Source: an uncultured Gammaproteobacteria bacterium (GTDB taxonomy: Bacteria; Patescibacteriota; Patescibacteriia; JAGPKW01). From it: a stretch of DNA of 57,927 nt. How positions within the stretch are numbered: the first letter of the stretch is position 1; the number at the start of each line of letters is the position of its first letter. Position numbers and translations under genes: made by a program. The stretch is taken from positions 1 through 57,927 of the forward strand of contig CAZHKK010000003.1 of the NCBI GenBank assembly GCA_964532735.1, read 5' to 3'. Below, piece by piece: positions 3,192 to 43,661 of this stretch. Below the pieces are notes generated by a model that saw only the letters and a program-made list of their open reading frames with translations, was not told the origin of the DNA and did no database searches.

Positions 3192-3319
3192 TTAATTCCT
3201 CCTAAATAAATTTTATAAAATACTACCCTTTAAAATATAAAAAGTCCAGTATCTTATTGATTTTTAATTATTTTGTGTTATAGTTACTTAAAATTAAAAC
3301 ATTTTTAAAGGAGGATTGT

Positions 3320-3652
3320 ATGAATATTGTTTTTTATATCAAAGATGATAAAGAAAAAGGCATTCAAGAGGTTAGTTTTTTTGATTTTAATGATAATAAA
3401 ATTGTTTTTACTGTGTTTATGAAAGAAATGGGTAGAATAACAATATCTAGAAACAATGAGATAAAAGAATACAACAACTTTCTTGATGAAAAAATTGAAA
3501 CAAAAAATATTCTTGAAAGATATGCAATTAATATATTTATTTGCAAAATGAAATATAATGAAAATTTTAATATTCATGCCAAAAAAGAAACCAGAGCAAA
3601 TAAAAAAGAAAAAGAAATATTAAACTCTATCATAATAAGAGATTTATTATGA
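3320..3652 (+). CDS. Hypothetical protein (110 aa)
   Basis: Strong SD AAAGGAGG at 3307-3314, TGA stop, terminator immediately downstream. No recognisable motif. Confidence 0.6.
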   Translation: MNIVFYIKDDKEKGIQEVSFFDFNDNKIVFTVFMKEMGRITISRNNEIKEYNNFLDEKIETKNILERYAINIFICKMKYNENFNIHAKKETRANKKEKEILNSIIIRDLL

Positions 3653-3660
3653 ATTAAAAA

Positions 3661-3679
3661 GCGGTCATTTTTTGACCGC
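3661..3679. terminator. Bidirectional terminator hairpin
   Basis: GCGGTCA-TTTTT-TGACCGC, flanked by A-run and T-run, between convergent genes. Confidence 0.6.
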
Positions 3680-3684
3680 TTATT

Positions 3685-4473
3685 TTAATCATTAGGATAA
3701 AAAACTTCTCTTCTTGGTTTTTCAAAATTTTCAATTTCTGTATTATGAATTTCATTATTATTTTTTACTGTTTCCTTTTTTTTATTTATAATTTTACTAC
3801 TTAATTTAACTTTTGTGTTTCTTTTTTTAGATTTTTCGGTGATTATTTTTTCTTTTTCTTCAACAAAAGTTTCTATTTTTTTAGCTATAGGATCTGGATT
3901 TTCTTTTTGTTCTATCTTAGCATTAGTCCTAAAAGTTTTAACATAACCATTATGTAATCTATTATACTCTAAATCAATTTCTAGTTCTGTAATAAAAGAA
4001 GGAACTTTTACTATTTTTATTATATTTTTTTCTGGTTCTGTTTTTATTTTTGTTTTTTTAAATATATTAAAAGTATAATTATAAAACATAATAAAATAAT
4101 TAACTACCTTATCAGAACCATTACATATAACATTAATAGATCTTCCTAGAGAATCTGGAATTAATTGAATTCTTATTTTTTCTATAATATTTTTATTGTA
4201 TTCTTTAAATATTTTACAATAAGAAATAATATCATACTCATTATTTGCGCCTTCTCTTATTGTCTCTTTTATAAAATAATATTTTTTTACAAGAACATCC
4301 TCACAAAAAGAAGAAATTTTCATAAATTCTTCTTTTGTTATTTGTTTATAACTGAAACCTACTCCGAAAAAATCAATCATAATTTCTAAATTTTTTCTTT
4401 TTTTTGTTTCAATTATATATTTAAACAAAAATATCAATAATACTAAAAACAAAAAAATATTAACAAATATCAT
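3685..4473 (-). CDS. Hypothetical membrane-anchored protein (262 aa)
   Basis: N-terminal hydrophobic helix (IFVNIFLFLVLLIFLF) and a Lys-rich C-terminus. No recognisable domain. Confidence 0.55.
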   Translation of the reverse strand: MIFVNIFLFLVLLIFLFKYIIETKKRKNLEIMIDFFGVGFSYKQITKEEFMKISSFCEDVLVKKYYFIKETIREGANNEYDIISYCKIFKEYNKNIIEKIRIQLIPDSLGRSINVICNGSDKVVNYFIMFYNYTFNIFKKTKIKTEPEKNIIKIVKVPSFITELEIDLEYNRLHNGYVKTFRTNAKIEQKENPDPIAKKIETFVEEKEKIITEKSKKRNTKVKLSSKIINKKKETVKNNNEIHNTEIENFEKPRREVFYPND

Positions 4474-4563
4474 AATTTTCTCCTTTTATTTTAGATTTGT
4501 TTTTTATCTTTACCATTTTTTTATCAAAAAAGCAATAGTAAATTAAAAGAGTAATATTAAATA

Positions 4564-4926
4564 TTACTCTTTTAATAAATCAAATAAAGACTCTTTTTTT
4601 ATAGGCTTATCTAAATAAAAACCATTCAATTCTTTTATCTTATTTATATATTTTTGAATATTAGATGAAATAAAAACTACATTTTTTATTTCTTTTTTTG
4701 CTTTTATTTTTCTTATCATATCAATACCATTCATATCTGGCATTTCTATATCAGTAATTATAAAACTATAATCATTTTTTAATATATCACAAAAAGCATC
4801 TTTTGATTTTTCTCTATAATCAGCCAATATATTTAATTTTTTAAACATAAACTTAAACGAATTTAACACAAGCATATCATCATCTATAACGATTATATGC
4901 TTAGTCGCGTTGGATTTTTTTATCAT
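4564..4926 (-). CDS. Stand-alone response-regulator receiver (CheY-like) protein
   Basis: 120 aa. Acidic pocket IDDD, phospho-acceptor context IITDIEMPDMNG, then VFISS and DKP (conserved Ser and Lys). No output domain. Confidence 0.85.
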   Translation of the reverse strand: MIKKSNATKHIIVIDDDMLVLNSFKFMFKKLNILADYREKSKDAFCDILKNDYSFIITDIEMPDMNGIDMIRKIKAKKEIKNVVFISSNIQKYINKIKELNGFYLDKPIKKESLFDLLKE

Positions 4927-4940
4927 ATTTTAGTTTTTTA

Positions 4941-5027
4941 GGCCAAAAATCCCCCTACCAAGAAGAGAATTGGCTTTTGGCCAACCAACGCGACATTGGT
5001 TCTCTCTTGATAGAGGGATTTTTGGCC
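4941..5027 (-). ncRNA. 87-nt GC-rich three-way-junction structured element (unassigned RNA or MITE-like palindrome)
   Basis: 4941-4969 pairs with 5000-5027. There are two apical hairpins. The mismatches are G.U only on the minus strand. The element is bracketed by the 11-bp direct repeat CGCGTTGGATT. Confidence 0.45.
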
Positions 5028-5063
5028 GCGTTGGATTATGTCAATTAAATTATATACTATATA

Positions 5064-5699
5064 TTAAATAATATCAAATCTTCCATGAAATATTTTATTT
5101 CTTTTTTTATTAATCATGTTTAATATACTTAAATTATCTTTTTTATCATTAAAAACAAAACTTAAATCGGTCCAATTATTTAAAATTAAACTTTTAATAT
5201 CTAAAAAATCTGAATAAAAAATATAATGAAATTTATTTTTGTCAAAATTTGATCTTTTTATGCAAATATTAGATATGTTTTTATCAACGCAATCTAACCA
5301 CCAACTATTACCTTTTGTTATAAACATCTTTTTTAAAATTACTCTTCTTAATTGATTTTCATATCTTATAAATTTTTTATAAAAATCTATATTATTATTT
5401 ATTAAAAAATCTGAATAAATAATTTTTATGTTTTCTATATTTTTTAAAAAAAATTCTCTTATTTTTTTAATATAATTATTATTGGTTTTTATTTTTATAA
5501 AAAATTGACAGAATTTTTTATATATAAAAATTTTTATAATATAATTTTTATTATAAGAATAAAATACTTTTATTGATTTATTTTCTTTGGTTTTTAGGTT
5601 TTTAATAAAATCTAATTTTAAAAATAAACTATATATAATAGAATTTAAAATATCTAAATCTTTATAAAAAGAAAAATATTCCTCTTTTTGTGTTTTCAT
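5064..5699 (-). CDS. Swt1-like HEPN domain protein
   Basis: C-terminal pattern NSWW...FLDIKSLILNNW...KKRNKIFHG (R-x4-H). The start overlaps the stop of the upstream gene (ATGA). Confidence 0.6.
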   Translation of the reverse strand: MKTQKEEYFSFYKDLDILNSIIYSLFLKLDFIKNLKTKENKSIKVFYSYNKNYIIKIFIYKKFCQFFIKIKTNNNYIKKIREFFLKNIENIKIIYSDFLINNNIDFYKKFIRYENQLRRVILKKMFITKGNSWWLDCVDKNISNICIKRSNFDKNKFHYIFYSDFLDIKSLILNNWTDLSFVFNDKKDNLSILNMINKKRNKIFHGRFDII

Positions 5700-6325
5700 A
5701 TAATTCCTTTATCTTTAAAACTTGTAAAATTATCAATGTTTATAAATACAAAATCAATAAAAATAATATCTAAAAAAATAGCTTTTTCTTTTATCTCTAA
5801 AGCAAACTTAATATACTCTTCTATAATATTATCTTCTTTTGATCCCCCAACTATAAAAAATTTTTTAAAATTATATTCAAACATATATTTAAATATAATA
5901 TTCATTTTTAAACTTGAAATATTATTACCTATAAATATTAATTTTTTACATATCAAATTATTAAAACTATCTAAAATACCAATATAAAATTCTGAATTTT
6001 TTAAATTTGATATAAATTTAAAATTTTCATATATTTTTTTTGAAGAATTTATAAAAATATCATTATTATCAAATATTCTTCTCCCTATTTCCACACAAGC
6101 ACAAACCTGAGAAGCTTTTGTTGTTGGTATTTTTAATTGTTTCACAATTTGTTCTACTGTTTTAAAAATAGATAGATCTTGCCCATAATCTTTTATTATT
6201 CTTCTAGACATATCAAAAACAGATTCTGTTTTAGAACCACTATTTAATATTACAGCTAAAAGTTCTTTTAGATCTAAATATTTTGGACCAAGCCTTATTA
6301 ATTTTTCTCGTGGAAGTTCATTCAT
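5696..6325 (-). CDS. radC: RadC-like (UPF0758) protein with degenerate JAB/JAMM site
   Basis: N-terminal HhH region (LKELLAVILNSGSKTES). The C-terminal JAB-like region lacks the HNHPSG motif (reads VGGSKED). Confidence 0.75.
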   Translation of the reverse strand: MNELPREKLIRLGPKYLDLKELLAVILNSGSKTESVFDMSRRIIKDYGQDLSIFKTVEQIVKQLKIPTTKASQVCACVEIGRRIFDNNDIFINSSKKIYENFKFISNLKNSEFYIGILDSFNNLICKKLIFIGNNISSLKMNIIFKYMFEYNFKKFFIVGGSKEDNIIEEYIKFALEIKEKAIFLDIIFIDFVFINIDNFTSFKDKGII

Positions 6326-7579: not shown

Positions 7580-7960
7580 ATGCCAAATAAAAAGAATGCA
7601 GAAAAAGCTTTAAGACAAAGTAAGAAAAGAAAAATAGCTAACGATAAAGTTAGACTTTCTATTCATGATATGAAAAGAAAAATTAGAAAAGCATTAGAAT
7701 CTAATGTTTCTATTGATGAACTACAAGGTCTTTACAAACAAGCTCAAGTTCTTTTAGATAAAGCTACAAAATCTAATATTATAAAAAGAAACTCTGCTGC
7801 TAGAAAAAAATCTTCTATTGCTAATATAATAAACAAAAAAGCTAAATCTCCTGCTGATGAAGTTGCAACTAAAAAAACTACAAAAAAAGTTGCAACTAAA
7901 AAAACTACAAAAAAAGTTGCAACTAAAAAAACTACAAAAAAAGTTGCAACTAAAAAATAG
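7580..7960 (+). CDS. rpsT: Ribosomal protein S20 with repetitive Lys-rich C-terminal tail
   Basis: N-terminus NAEKALRQSKKRK... is typical of S20. The C-terminus is VATKKTTKK repeated. Confidence 0.9.
   Translation: MPNKKNAEKALRQSKKRKIANDKVRLSIHDMKRKIRKALESNVSIDELQGLYKQAQVLLDKATKSNIIKRNSAARKKSSIANIINKKAKSPADEVATKKTTKKVATKKTTKKVATKKTTKKVATKK
7862..7957 (+). repeat. Perfect 27-bp tandem repeat (3.5 copies) inside rpsT
   Basis: GTTGCAACTAAAAAAACTACAAAAAAA at 7862, 7889 and 7916, with a partial copy at 7943. In frame. Confidence 0.9.
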
Positions 7961-13831: not shown

Positions 13832-13905
13832 TGGCTCCGGGACATGGATTCGAACCATGATGACAGGTTCCAGAGACCTGTGTCCTACCATTAGACGATC
13901 CCGGA
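13832..13905 (-). tRNA. tRNA-Gln (anticodon CUG), CCA encoded
   Basis: Manual fold: acceptor UCCGGGA/UCCCGGA, anticodon stem CAGGU/ACCUG, anticodon loop CUCUGGA, T-arm CAUGG-UUCGAAU-CCAUG, discriminator G, then CCA. Confidence 0.85.
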
Positions 13906-22046: not shown

Positions 22047-22078
22047 TTAACTGACTTATGTCGAGTACGACAAAATCA

Positions 22079-22109
22079 AAAAGCCCACAATTAATTTGTG
22101 GGTTTTTTG
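22079..22109 (+). terminator. Terminator after hup
   Basis: AAAGCCCACAA-TTAAT-TTGTGGGTTTTTT. Confidence 0.65.
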
Positions 22110-22189
22110 ATTGTAAAAATATTATAAATAATGTAAATTTATATTAATTTAAAACTAAATGAAAATTAAAAAAATTAAATTTATTTATT

Positions 22190-24256: not shown

Positions 24257-24877
24257 TTATTTTAAAACTATTATTTTTAAAACTTTTGCACCAAAATTTT
24301 TTGAATCTACTTTATTTTTCATCCAAACATCTAATCTATCCATGCCTGTAAATCTTTTATTCATTCTATCTTCAACATAAAATATTCTATCTCCAAAATA
24401 TTCTGGAATTAATATTTTTGTATGAAAAGGTAAATCGTTGGTAGCTACTATATCTTCCACATCTCTCTTGCAAACATCCATTCCAGAAGCTGTTATACAA
24501 GGAGTATCATCGGTTTGTCCAGGCTCACTATTATACGATGTTACTGTAGCTATATAAGAATCCTTAACTTGATCTTTATATTTTTCCATAACCTTTTTTA
24601 CTTCTTCATTTGTCTTCTTAATAAGAATTGAAGGTTTTTTAATTTCTTCTTTTATTTCTTCTTTTATTTCTTCTTTTATTTCTTCTTTTATTTCTTTAAC
24701 TAAAACAACATTTGAAACTTTTGGTTCCAATTTTAAAGGCTCCTCGGCTATTGCTTCGTGTATTATATGACTTTTTAAATCTTTAAAAATTCCCATTTTA
24801 TAAGACAAAATACCCCCAATAAATATTATTGATAAAACTTGTATAGTAAATACAATTTTCCATTTAAAATCCTTCAT
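24257..24877 (-). CDS. 3D-domain (MltA/YabE-like) cell-wall protein with N-terminal anchor
   Basis: C-terminus ATVTSYN..PGQTDDTPCITASG...VATN.LPF.T...IP matches the 3D domain. N-terminal TM helix and an EIKE repeat linker. Confidence 0.8.
   Translation of the reverse strand: MKDFKWKIVFTIQVLSIIFIGGILSYKMGIFKDLKSHIIHEAIAEEPLKLEPKVSNVVLVKEIKEEIKEEIKEEIKEEIKKPSILIKKTNEEVKKVMEKYKDQVKDSYIATVTSYNSEPGQTDDTPCITASGMDVCKRDVEDIVATNDLPFHTKILIPEYFGDRIFYVEDRMNKRFTGMDRLDVWMKNKVDSKNFGAKVLKIIVLK
24643..24696 (-). repeat. 12-bp in-frame tandem repeat (EEIK)n
   Basis: TTTCTTCTTTTA repeated about 4.5 times within the 3D-domain gene. Confidence 0.85.
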
Positions 24878-38240: not shown

Positions 38241-39260
38241 ATGTCTAATAGACACTTAGTTCGTTCAATAGTATTACAAAGTCTTTTTGAATGGGACTTT
38301 AAAGATGGAAATATAAAAATTGATGATGTATTGGAATACAACATTGGTTCTTTCGCTTCTATGTTATCTTTTAAAGATGACTTTCTTCAATTTTTAAGTA
38401 AAGGCGTTACAAGAAATATAAAAAAAATTGATAAAATAATAAAAAACTTTGCTCCAGAATGGCCAATAAATCAAATTTCCACAGTTGATAGAAATATTTT
38501 AAGAATAGCTATTTTTGAATTAATTTATAGCAGTTATACACCATACAAAGTTGTTATAAATGAAGCTATAGAATTAGCTAAAAACTTTAGTGGAGAAAAA
38601 TCTTCAAAATTTATAAATGGTGTATTAGGATCTGTTATAAATGAAATCAATAATCATATTGATAAAATTTATAACATTGATTTTATAATAAAAAACAATG
38701 AGAATAATACTTATCTCTCTATAAAACAAGATAATTGTTTTAAGTTTTTTAGAATTAATAATAAATTTAAAGAAGAAATAGAAAAAGAAAAAGATAATAA
38801 ATTTAAAGAAGAAATAGAAAAAGAAAAAGATAATAAAGATAATAAAGATAATAAATCTTCTGAAATATTAGATAAAAATGAAATAAAAGCAGAAGAAATA
38901 AAGGAAGATATAATAGAATCTGACGAGATACAACCTAAAGAAGAAATAATTATAAATGATAAAGATAATTTCTCTGAATATTTAAATTTTGCATCAAAAG
39001 AATTTTCTAAATATTTTAATATAAATAATTTAAATATAAAATCTATAGATGATGTTAATTACTCTATTATAAAAGAAAACGATAAAAAAGCATTATTCCC
39101 AAAAATAACACTAAAGAATATATTTTTTGTTCTTGTAGAAATAAATAACATTAAAGACATTAAACTTCCAAATGAGACGTTTGAATGGAAAAAAAAAGAA
39201 GATATGCTATCTTCAATAAATTATAAAAATATAAAAAATATCTTAAGTAAAATAATTTAA
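38241..39260 (+). CDS. nusB: NusB antitermination factor with about 200-aa C-terminal extension
   Basis: First ~135 aa are NusB (R..VLQ.LF.....[11 protein letters not shown]...[13 protein letters not shown]......FINGVLG). The rest is low-complexity and Lys/Glu/Asn-rich. Confidence 0.8.
38761..38856 (+). repeat. In-frame tandem repeats in the nusB extension
   Basis: A 36-bp unit twice (38761-38796, 38797-38832), followed by GATAATAAA about three times. Confidence 0.85.
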
Positions 39261-40077: not shown

Positions 40078-40197
<120 letters not shown>

Positions 40198-40295
40198 TTA
40201 GTTTCCAGCTATTGAAGACTTGTAAACTTAAAATTAAATAGAGATTTAGAATAGTTTAATGTAGCATTTATTAACCAAAGAATTTCATCATTATT

Positions 40296-43264
<2,969 letters not shown>

Positions 43265-43661
43265 ACAAGAATAACGAAATTCTTGTTTATTCTCTCGAAT
43301 GTTATTTTAAAACATATTTAAGTAACAATATATGAGAAATTACATATATTAATTAATACTTTTTACTCGCTTTCTTATAGGTAGACTTAGACCTATAAGA
43401 AATATTCTAAATTCACTCTCTATTTAATTTTTAATCTACAAATCTTTAACAACTGAATTTAGGCTAAAACATTTTTTAGACTATGTCAAATGTTAAATTT
43501 AGACAACAAAAAATAACCAATAGCATTTATTATTATAAAAATTGTGATAATAGCAAATGCTTAGAGGTTATTAATAATTTATTATAACTTAAGCGTTCTG
43601 GTTTTCCTACTTTTGTTTTCTTATTTTTTGGATGTTAAGTATTATAGTCTAAAAAATTTTT

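Follow-up and report, generated by a model that had tools for sequence, protein, structure and literature searches.

The contig CAZHKK010000003.1 (57,927 nt; assembly GCA_964532735.1, from an uncultured bacterium), all of which was analysed and is referred to here as the window, carries along its minus strand a RadC gene (5696-6325), a gene for a 211-amino-acid HEPN-like protein, a GC-rich element, a gene for a CheY-like receiver and, with two unknown genes in between, a PIN-PhoH gene. The element, to which a first-pass annotation made from the sequence alone had drawn attention, is a real, conserved and single-copy structured leader RNA of no described family and probably serves the receiver gene as a conformational switch. 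Nine distinct variants of this locus, the window included, were available for comparison. The features to which the analysis refers are as follows.

5064-5699, minus strand: HEPN-like gene, 211 amino acids, with a 4-nt overlap with the RadC gene and its stop codon 10 nt before the -10 box
5072-5077, minus strand: -35 box TTGATA, inside the 3'-terminal codons of the HEPN-like gene
5049-5054, minus strand: -10 box, TATAAT in eight of the nine variants and TACAAT in one, among non-coding bases that vary
5041, minus strand: predicted transcription start, an invariant A 8 nt past the -10 box, placed by promoter geometry
5025-5034, minus strand: copy A, the 10-mer of the 5' tail, CCAACGCGGC in the window and CCAACGCGAC or CCAACGCGAU in relatives
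5000-5027, minus strand: 5' arm of the long stem (terminator-like fold, here the T fold), starting GGCC-AAAAA-UCCCUCU
4984-5000, minus strand: apical hairpin P2, ACCAAUG / UCG / CGUUGGU, carrying the antisense 10-mer GUCGCGUUGG at 4985-4994
4970-4984, minus strand: apical hairpin P3, UUGGC / CAAAA / GCCAA
4941-4969, minus strand: 3' arm of the long stem, ending GGGGG-A-UUUUU (U-tract at 4945-4949) and then GGCC
4927-4940, minus strand: AU-rich spacer, the least conserved part of the locus
4924-4926, minus strand: receiver start codon, an ATG kept one to three codons upstream of copy A' in all nine variants
4904-4913, minus strand: copy A', CCAACGCGAC, within codons 5-8 (Ser-Asn-Ala-Thr) of the receiver, with a core that is invariant in the nine variants
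4564-4926, minus strand: receiver gene, single-domain CheY-like, 120 amino acids (Pfam Response_reg, 3e-15), with no output domain
4541-4575, minus strand: AT-rich hairpin with a U-run, overlapping the receiver stop codon and read straight from the sequence

The GC content of positions 4941-5027 amounts to 48.3%, compared with 24.5% for the whole window, and the spacers on either side are AT-rich (7% GC for 4927-4940 and 12% for 5038-5063), which bears out the earlier description of a GC-rich island in A/T-rich intergenic DNA. In a GC-island scan of the window, this was the sole such island outside rRNA, tRNA and coding sequence. The minus-strand RNA from 5040 to 4935 was predicted to fold into a 27-bp stem with one bulge (5027-5000 paired with 4969-4941) and two apical hairpins, its apex being a three-way junction, with a free energy of -54.4 kcal/mol (z = -9.2; none of 200 shuffled sequences was equally stable). 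The stem and the two hairpins that had been proposed by inspection were recovered in this prediction, as was their strand preference: the plus-strand fold reached -44.0 kcal/mol, i.e. 10 kcal/mol weaker, and left positions within the stem unpaired. This asymmetry was observed in all eight aligned variants, in each of which the sense strand was the more stable by 6-18 kcal/mol, and some 45 G-U cells of the alignment would become C-A mismatches if read on the opposite strand.

Related loci were gathered from contigs encoding homologs of the 211-amino-acid protein, from contigs encoding receiver orthologs and from metagenomes matching a three-part DNA pattern; the last of these sources yielded nine loci, five of which were chance matches in GC-rich contigs. 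For the receiver, a single-sequence homolog search found almost nothing, and a profile search was used instead. Homologs of the 211-amino-acid protein were 52-62% identical, with a sixth cluster (P0006, 51%) belonging to the more distant locus L025, while receiver orthologs were 46-55% identical to the window protein and formed a tiny family, E-values leaping from 1e-44 to 1e-17 after ten clusters. All nine variants, from related AT-rich bacteria that are likewise uncultured, share the order HEPN-like gene, approximately 138 nt and receiver gene. Mean pairwise nucleotide identity was 0.91 for the element, 0.75 for the end of the HEPN-like gene, 0.71 for the receiver gene and 0.65 for the spacer between the U-tract and the ATG, and, judged by these alignments, the element is the most constrained sequence of the locus.

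Comparison of the variants also supported the structure itself. RNAalifold independently yielded the long stem and P2 from the alignment, 95.8% of the alignment cells were paired (compared with 40-55% with slid partners), and four pairs carried compensatory double changes, the observed covariation score being matched by none of 500 shuffles. An alignment of orthologous intergenic regions had been suggested as a check on the first-pass annotation, and in it the element was found in every one of the nine variants that possess the receiver gene. Nearly all invariant bases are explained by pairing, whereas bases of the junction and of the P3 loop vary. The sequence AUGUCGCGUUGGUUGGCC of P2 is invariant in the nine variants, the P3 loop differs among relatives (CAAAAG, CUAAAAG), with an extra G in locus L021 that lengthens the stem and leaves a GAAA loop, and the 3' arm in relatives reads GGGUUUUUUGG, ending GGG-UUUUUU-GG. 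In locus L025, no receiver gene is present in the ~200 nt of contig past the HEPN-like gene, where a plain hairpin-plus-U terminator is found, indicating that the element is tied to the receiver gene and not to the upstream gene. Past this plain terminator, at 3150-3318 of L025, lies a long inverted repeat (arms CATAAACACAATT..CGCAATGG and CCATTGCG..AATTGTGTTTATG) enclosing a GC-richer segment of ~130 nt at the end of the contig; it has no Rfam match and may represent another structured RNA.

Searches for known families and for further copies placed the element on its own. At gathering thresholds, Rfam 15 returned rRNA and tRNA only from the window and five orthologous loci, and a permissive scan of 4700-5300 gave chance hairpin matches only (microRNA models scoring 26-30 bits, where the thresholds are 70-90). 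The Rfam comparison suggested earlier thus assigned the element to no family, and it is a candidate new family of structured leader RNA. The sole tRNA detected by ARAGORN in the window was tRNA-Gln (13832-13905), with no tRNA or tmRNA at the element. A covariance model of the element found exactly one strong copy per related locus (94-113 bits; 126 kb of related loci), and both a repeat finder and the GC-island scan indicated a single copy in the 58-kb window. The invariant 18-mer of the apex was found at 31 loci among 185,579 species-representative genomes, 30 of which were chance occurrences in GC-rich genomes; the only true match was the metagenome-assembled genome 'bacterium isolate BP6.bin87'. 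No match to this 18-mer was found in viral contigs.

The octamer CGCGTTGG occurs at 4906-4913 and 5027-5034 on the plus strand and at 4985-4992 on the minus strand, i.e. three times against an expectation of 0.03, a count reached in none of 100 shuffles, so that its description as rare yet threefold was justified. The 11-bp direct repeat at 4906-4916 and 5027-5037 was likewise present as annotated, and the apical 10-mer at 4985-4994 proved to be the exact reverse complement of 4904-4913, as had been claimed for receiver codons 5-8. Within the 58-kb window, no further near-match to the loop 10-mer was found, and no trans targets beyond chance.

Copy A pairs at all ten positions with the loop 10-mer in each of the nine variants. 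Its consensus is CCAACGCGRY, i.e. CCAACGCG followed by AC, GC or AU, and the two variable positions stay wobble-compatible with the invariant loop. Copy A and the long stem overlap by 3 nt, the end of the former being the start of the latter, and the same two positions recur in the stem base, offset on the other arm (GACU/GGUU, GGCC/GGCC and GAUU/GAUC). Being compensated in the stem and wobble-compatible with the loop, they are kept pairable in two different helices. Copy A' begins 4-10 nt past the AUG, and all orthologs retain its codons UCC (replaced by ACC in two variants), AAC and GCG without change, even though UCC, AAC and GCG account for only 2.8% of Ser, 13.9% of Asn and 2.5% of Ala codons in window genes. 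In the rest of the receiver gene, a single codon is kept at only 9 of 28 invariant residues, which argues that copy A' is constrained as nucleic acid. The duplex between the apex and copy A' was calculated at -17 to -20 kcal/mol, and 10-mer duplexes with the apex at -16 to -20 kcal/mol overall, compared with only -6.5 kcal/mol for P2 by itself, and the opening of P2 to capture copy A' would therefore be energetically reasonable. In loci L062 and L066, an adenine has replaced the uracil just ahead of the core in both copy A and copy A', and both duplexes lengthen to 12 bp.

Folding of partial transcripts pointed to two competing conformations. The helix between copy A and the apex was the minimum-energy structure of RNAs ending after the apex or after P3 in every variant (-21 to -30 kcal/mol), and it was 100% paired across variants. 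When the 3' arm and U-tract were added, the long stem was favoured over this helix by only 2.6-9.5 kcal/mol, and in L062 the helix between copy A and the apex was still the minimum-energy fold of the finished leader. Since copy A overlaps the stem by 3 nt and no linker separates it from the stem base, it could not reach the apex, ~25 bp away, while the stem stands; the geometry of the two helices suggests that they are mutually exclusive, as is typical of an attenuator with an alternative, earlier helix.

The promoter match TTGATA-N17-TATAAT (5077-5049) is the top match of the region (11 of 12 positions, spacer of 17), and its TTGAT is invariant in the nine variants, a conservation that is confounded with coding constraint. 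With this conserved promoter, copy A (5034-5025) would lie ~7 nt in from the start of the transcript. The distance between the U-tract and the receiver ATG is just 14-21 nt and contains no promoter, so that the receiver gene would have to be transcribed through the element, which would make it a leader in any case. The element also resembles an intrinsic terminator, in that a GC-containing stem is followed by a U-run: the A-tract that opens the 5' arm, the GC stem and U6 are conserved, and CCC...GGG followed by U6 is invariant in the eight relatives, with U5 in the window. It is not a simple hairpin with a short loop. The covariance model of the element additionally matched an ordinary terminator, AAAAAGCCCAC..GUGGGUUUUUUG at 22062-22115, a cross-match that indicates, from sequence comparison, that the stem base is built like a normal intrinsic terminator of this genome. 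The terminator at 22062-22115, AAAAAGCCCACAATTAATTTGTGGGTTTTTTG, follows a short open reading frame and was picked up owing to its similar stem base.

Taken together, these observations favour, with a probability of roughly 55%, the interpretation that the element is an attenuator-type 5' leader, a conformational RNA switch through which read-through into the receiver gene and the initiation of its translation are coupled. A sigma-70-type promoter would start the RNA ~8 nt past the -10 box, its short 5' tail bearing copy A, and the pairing of copy A with the antisense 10-mer (the antiterminator-like or AT fold) would form first, during synthesis. The T fold, consisting of the long stem with P2 and P3 and then the U-tract, would be terminator-like and more stable once the 3' arm has been made, and the balance between the two folds would set the share of polymerases that read through into the receiver gene. 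An early helix between copy A and the apex would delay or prevent the long stem and permit read-through and, with copy A holding the loop in the read-through RNA, copy A' and the start region would stay open. Where the long stem forms, a stop at the U-tract would tend to follow, and in any mRNA that escapes, the loop 10-mer could open P2 and capture copy A', which lies inside the ribosome footprint, so that initiation would be blocked. Copy A would in this manner serve as a built-in decoy of the first codons, both layers of control acting in the same direction, and the model predicts that a change of copy A from CCAACGCG to GGUUGCGC would raise termination. Shine-Dalgarno-like motifs precede only 6 of the 23 large genes of the window and none is found ahead of the ATG at 4926-4924, as annotated previously, which is normal here; initiation probably needs an unstructured start region, and pairing of the loop with copy A' could be an effective block for that reason. 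Possible triggers include a protein, temperature, transcription speed or an RNase, the last including the neighbouring PIN-PhoH or HEPN-like proteins. A bolder version is put forward more tentatively and is doubtful at present, namely a new class of self-contained 'codon-mimic' switch, in a very AT-rich lineage poor in Shine-Dalgarno motifs, in which a 5' decoy and the real codons compete for one antisense loop at the tip of an intrinsic terminator.

Several observations weigh against a switch of this kind. The start of transcription, its termination and the read-through are all predicted, and the nine variants are few, closely related members of one narrow lineage, for which shuffle statistics overstate the support. 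The core 8-mer is constant in all three copies, so that the triple complementarity is accompanied by wobble-compatible or flanking changes only and not by true covariation. Unlike classical antiterminators, the helix between copy A and the apex leaves the terminator's own 5' arm uncovered, its exclusion of the long stem depending on the 3-nt overlap and the steric argument. In the window, moreover, the stem runs on through the U-tract (GGCC/GGCC) and U5 follows an A, which is less canonical than the terminators of the relatives, and a simple terminator scanner, which is blind to branched hairpins, made no call on the minus strand of the element with its branched loop. Conserved unpaired nucleotides are few; they make no small-molecule pocket evident and point to no ligand or signal.

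Three interpretations had been offered in the first-pass annotation, and the one closest to the switch was that of a cis-regulatory RNA in which the loop pairs with the coding sequence. The conservation of the element, the loop 10-mer and the coding-sequence copy in nine variants, together with the invariant, rare GC-ending codons, agrees with it; it was incomplete in that the conserved promoter, the U-tract and the alternative helix of the upstream copy with the loop had been overlooked. The second interpretation, an intercistronic terminator or processing structure, can be extended to a passive element that terminates the RadC/HEPN-like operon, serves as a processing site of the RNase III type or stabilizes the 5' end as a hairpin, with the repeats as relics of an old duplication of the 5' end of the gene. 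Such a structure would account for the stem base and U-run, which are like those of ordinary terminators, and for the absence of any other terminator seen after the HEPN-like gene in the window, and a helix of 25-27 bp is a plausible RNase III substrate. It is nevertheless considered unlikely, as ordinary terminators of this genome are short and simple hairpins, as a terminator of this plain kind is used in the relative L025, without an adjacent receiver gene, and as the three complementary copies are left unexplained, including the invariant loop 10-mer, the non-stem part of copy A and the rare codons of copy A' beside a neutral spacer that falls to 65% identity. Only slightly less probable is a stand-alone small RNA of ~95 nt, whose apical 10-mer would pair in cis or in trans with the first receiver codons or whose 5' tail would act as a seed. 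The conserved promoter and terminator-like end and the complementarity of the loop to coding sequence are compatible with such an RNA, and terminated riboswitch leaders that act in trans are known from Listeria (SreA/SreB). Transcription of the receiver gene through the element, given the short promoter-free distance to its ATG, makes a small RNA hard to separate from a leader, and the 10-mer has no second target within the 58 kb of the window.

The same three copies could instead be read at the level of DNA, as 10-bp GC-rich operators (two direct, one inverted) for a DNA-binding regulator, with the hairpin incidental. The copies lie at approximately +8, +48 and +128 of the promoter, the motif is otherwise absent from the window and its core never varies; however, the middle copy coincides precisely with the tip of a fold that carries compensatory changes and is strongly strand-asymmetric, the changes in copy A are transitions that preserve RNA pairing in two alternative helices, and the conserved cluster encodes no DNA-binding protein in a Pfam scan, the receiver being without an output domain, so that operators appear improbable. 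A leader-peptide attenuator, in which translation of a short open reading frame starting at the apex AUG (MSRWLA...) controls the terminator, is more improbable still. Its first codons, AUG UCG CGU UGG UUG GCC, are invariant and consist of rare codons, yet conservation ceases past these six (by eye, L062 has a stop after six codons and L021 a frame-shifting indel leading to an unrelated tail of 30 residues), the AUG (4996-4994) is buried in P2 with no Shine-Dalgarno motif ahead of it, and pairing fully explains the same bases. The third of the annotated interpretations, a miniature inverted-repeat transposable element with an 11-bp target-site duplication, was rejected and is judged extremely improbable, even though a direct repeat does flank a palindromic, GC-rich insert. 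The element occurs once in 58 kb and once per related locus, at the same syntenic place in every relative, with one true match among all genomes searched and no presence/absence polymorphism among the variants that have the receiver gene. Its flanking repeats are longer than the supposed duplication (21 nt) and perfect in relatives while neutral DNA has diverged, the spacer beside them to 65%, indicative of purifying selection, and a Pfam scan of neighbouring open reading frames revealed no transposase nearby. An integron attC site was also considered, as the direct repeat contains, by eye, GTTGGAT, which fits GTTRRRY, and was discarded on account of there being one site only, fixed in synteny; no integrase was found in the Pfam scan of neighbouring open reading frames (RadC, HEPN-like, receiver, PIN-PhoH, CorA and two unknowns).

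Among known systems, terminator/antiterminator leaders (attenuators and riboswitch platforms) share with this element a promoter-proximal 5' leader, a stable hairpin with a U-tract just upstream of the regulated gene, and an earlier alternative helix that is incompatible with the hairpin, the two folds being close in energy. They differ in that the 5' tail here pairs with the apical loop of the terminator and not with its 5' arm, that no aptamer-like set of conserved unpaired bases and no Rfam 15 match is present, and that a third copy of the switching sequence lies within the coding region. ANTAR-regulated leaders (the targets of EutV, AmiR and NasR) have two tandem small hairpins that overlap a terminator. 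Two adjacent small hairpins with a terminator are likewise found here, beside a response-regulator gene; unlike in ANTAR leaders, they are situated at the terminator tip and do not compete with it, they lack hexaloops, and the receiver has no ANTAR domain. An ANTAR target RNA was rejected for these reasons, the P2 loop being 3 nt (or 7 nt), the P3 loop a variable 4-6 nt and the receiver Response_reg only. DsrA activates rpoS translation by an anti-antisense mechanism, titrating an inhibitory leader segment from the translation start. The element is similar in that a second RNA segment with the start-region sequence removes an inhibitory antisense segment; the decoy of rpoS is a trans-acting, Hfq-dependent small RNA, whereas here it would be located within the same transcript. 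In the hok mRNA of hok/Sok type I toxin-antitoxin systems (elements tac, ucb, dcb and fbi), an element at the extreme 5' end can pair with alternative partners along the mRNA, the helix that arises first, during transcription, is metastable, and the winning partner decides whether the translation start is open (PMC9841398). In terms of mechanism, this pathway is the nearest precedent for a 5' element that has a choice of partners and a metastable helix formed during transcription. It differs from the present case in controlling a toxin and in needing 3' processing and the Sok antisense RNA, whereas no toxin open reading frame, antisense gene or 3' element was seen here, and in the element described here two identical sense copies contend for one antisense loop in a structure that is also terminator-like.

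The 211-amino-acid protein has no Pfam match and is matched by the PADLOC model PDC-M34B (8e-12; candidate defence); its relatives comprise only six clusters among 5.8 billion proteins. Its N-terminal domain is alpha/beta and its C-terminal domain helical, the latter with the invariant motifs ENxLR and KRNxxFHGRF. The name HEPN follows the first-pass annotation; the motif RNxxxH is invariant at the C-terminus, and an AlphaFold model (pLDDT 75) yielded no HEPN match in a PDB fold search. For the receiver, the start codon supported by the orthologs is the conserved ATG at 4926-4924. Start-codon calls are in conflict between loci L010-L013 and L001-L009, in which identical DNA (100% across the element) was assigned a receiver of 94 amino acids in some assemblies and of 120 amino acids in others. 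The hairpin and U-run at 4541-4575 would make the receiver gene monocistronic in the window species, in which two genes without a Pfam match (262 amino acids on the minus strand and 110 on the plus strand, 3305-4473) lie between receiver and PIN-PhoH, an arrangement seen in this species only. In most relatives, the PIN-PhoH gene is located 60-75 nt downstream of the receiver gene and is possibly co-transcribed with it. In L018 and L021, the PIN-PhoH gene directly follows the receiver gene, and the one spacer inspected, that of L018, is without an obvious terminator.

Elsewhere, the window carries ordinary chromosomal genes (PNPase, PolA, PilB, LeuRS, RecQ, CysRS, DnaA and 23S-5S rRNA). The 23S and 5S rRNA genes (40078-43265) have protein genes directly upstream of 23S and no 16S gene is found in the 58-kb window, so that the rRNA genes appear unlinked. 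A perfect 27-nt tandem repeat of ~3.6 copies (7860-7957) lies inside the gene for ribosomal protein S20 (7580-7960), at its 3' end, where it encodes VATKKTTKK units as a C-terminal extension, and a 12-nt tandem repeat, TTCTTCTTTTAT, of ~5 copies at 24623-24713 may lie within a minus-strand coding region, with related low-complexity copies at 38750-38840.

If the element were a passive terminator instead of a switch, it would be of local interest only. If the tentative codon-mimic mechanism holds, a single refolding would set both read-through and translation initiation of a CheY-like receiver, and PIN-PhoH could share the same control in most relatives. To our knowledge, hardly any regulatory RNAs are known from bacteria that are uncultured, reduced and AT-rich, in which such regulators are hard to find. 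At ~95 nt, the leader is small and clean and would represent a compact natural case in which an in-cis decoy couples transcriptional with translational control. It would also mark the CheY-like receiver, and possibly the PIN-PhoH that follows it in most relatives, as tightly regulated in this lineage.

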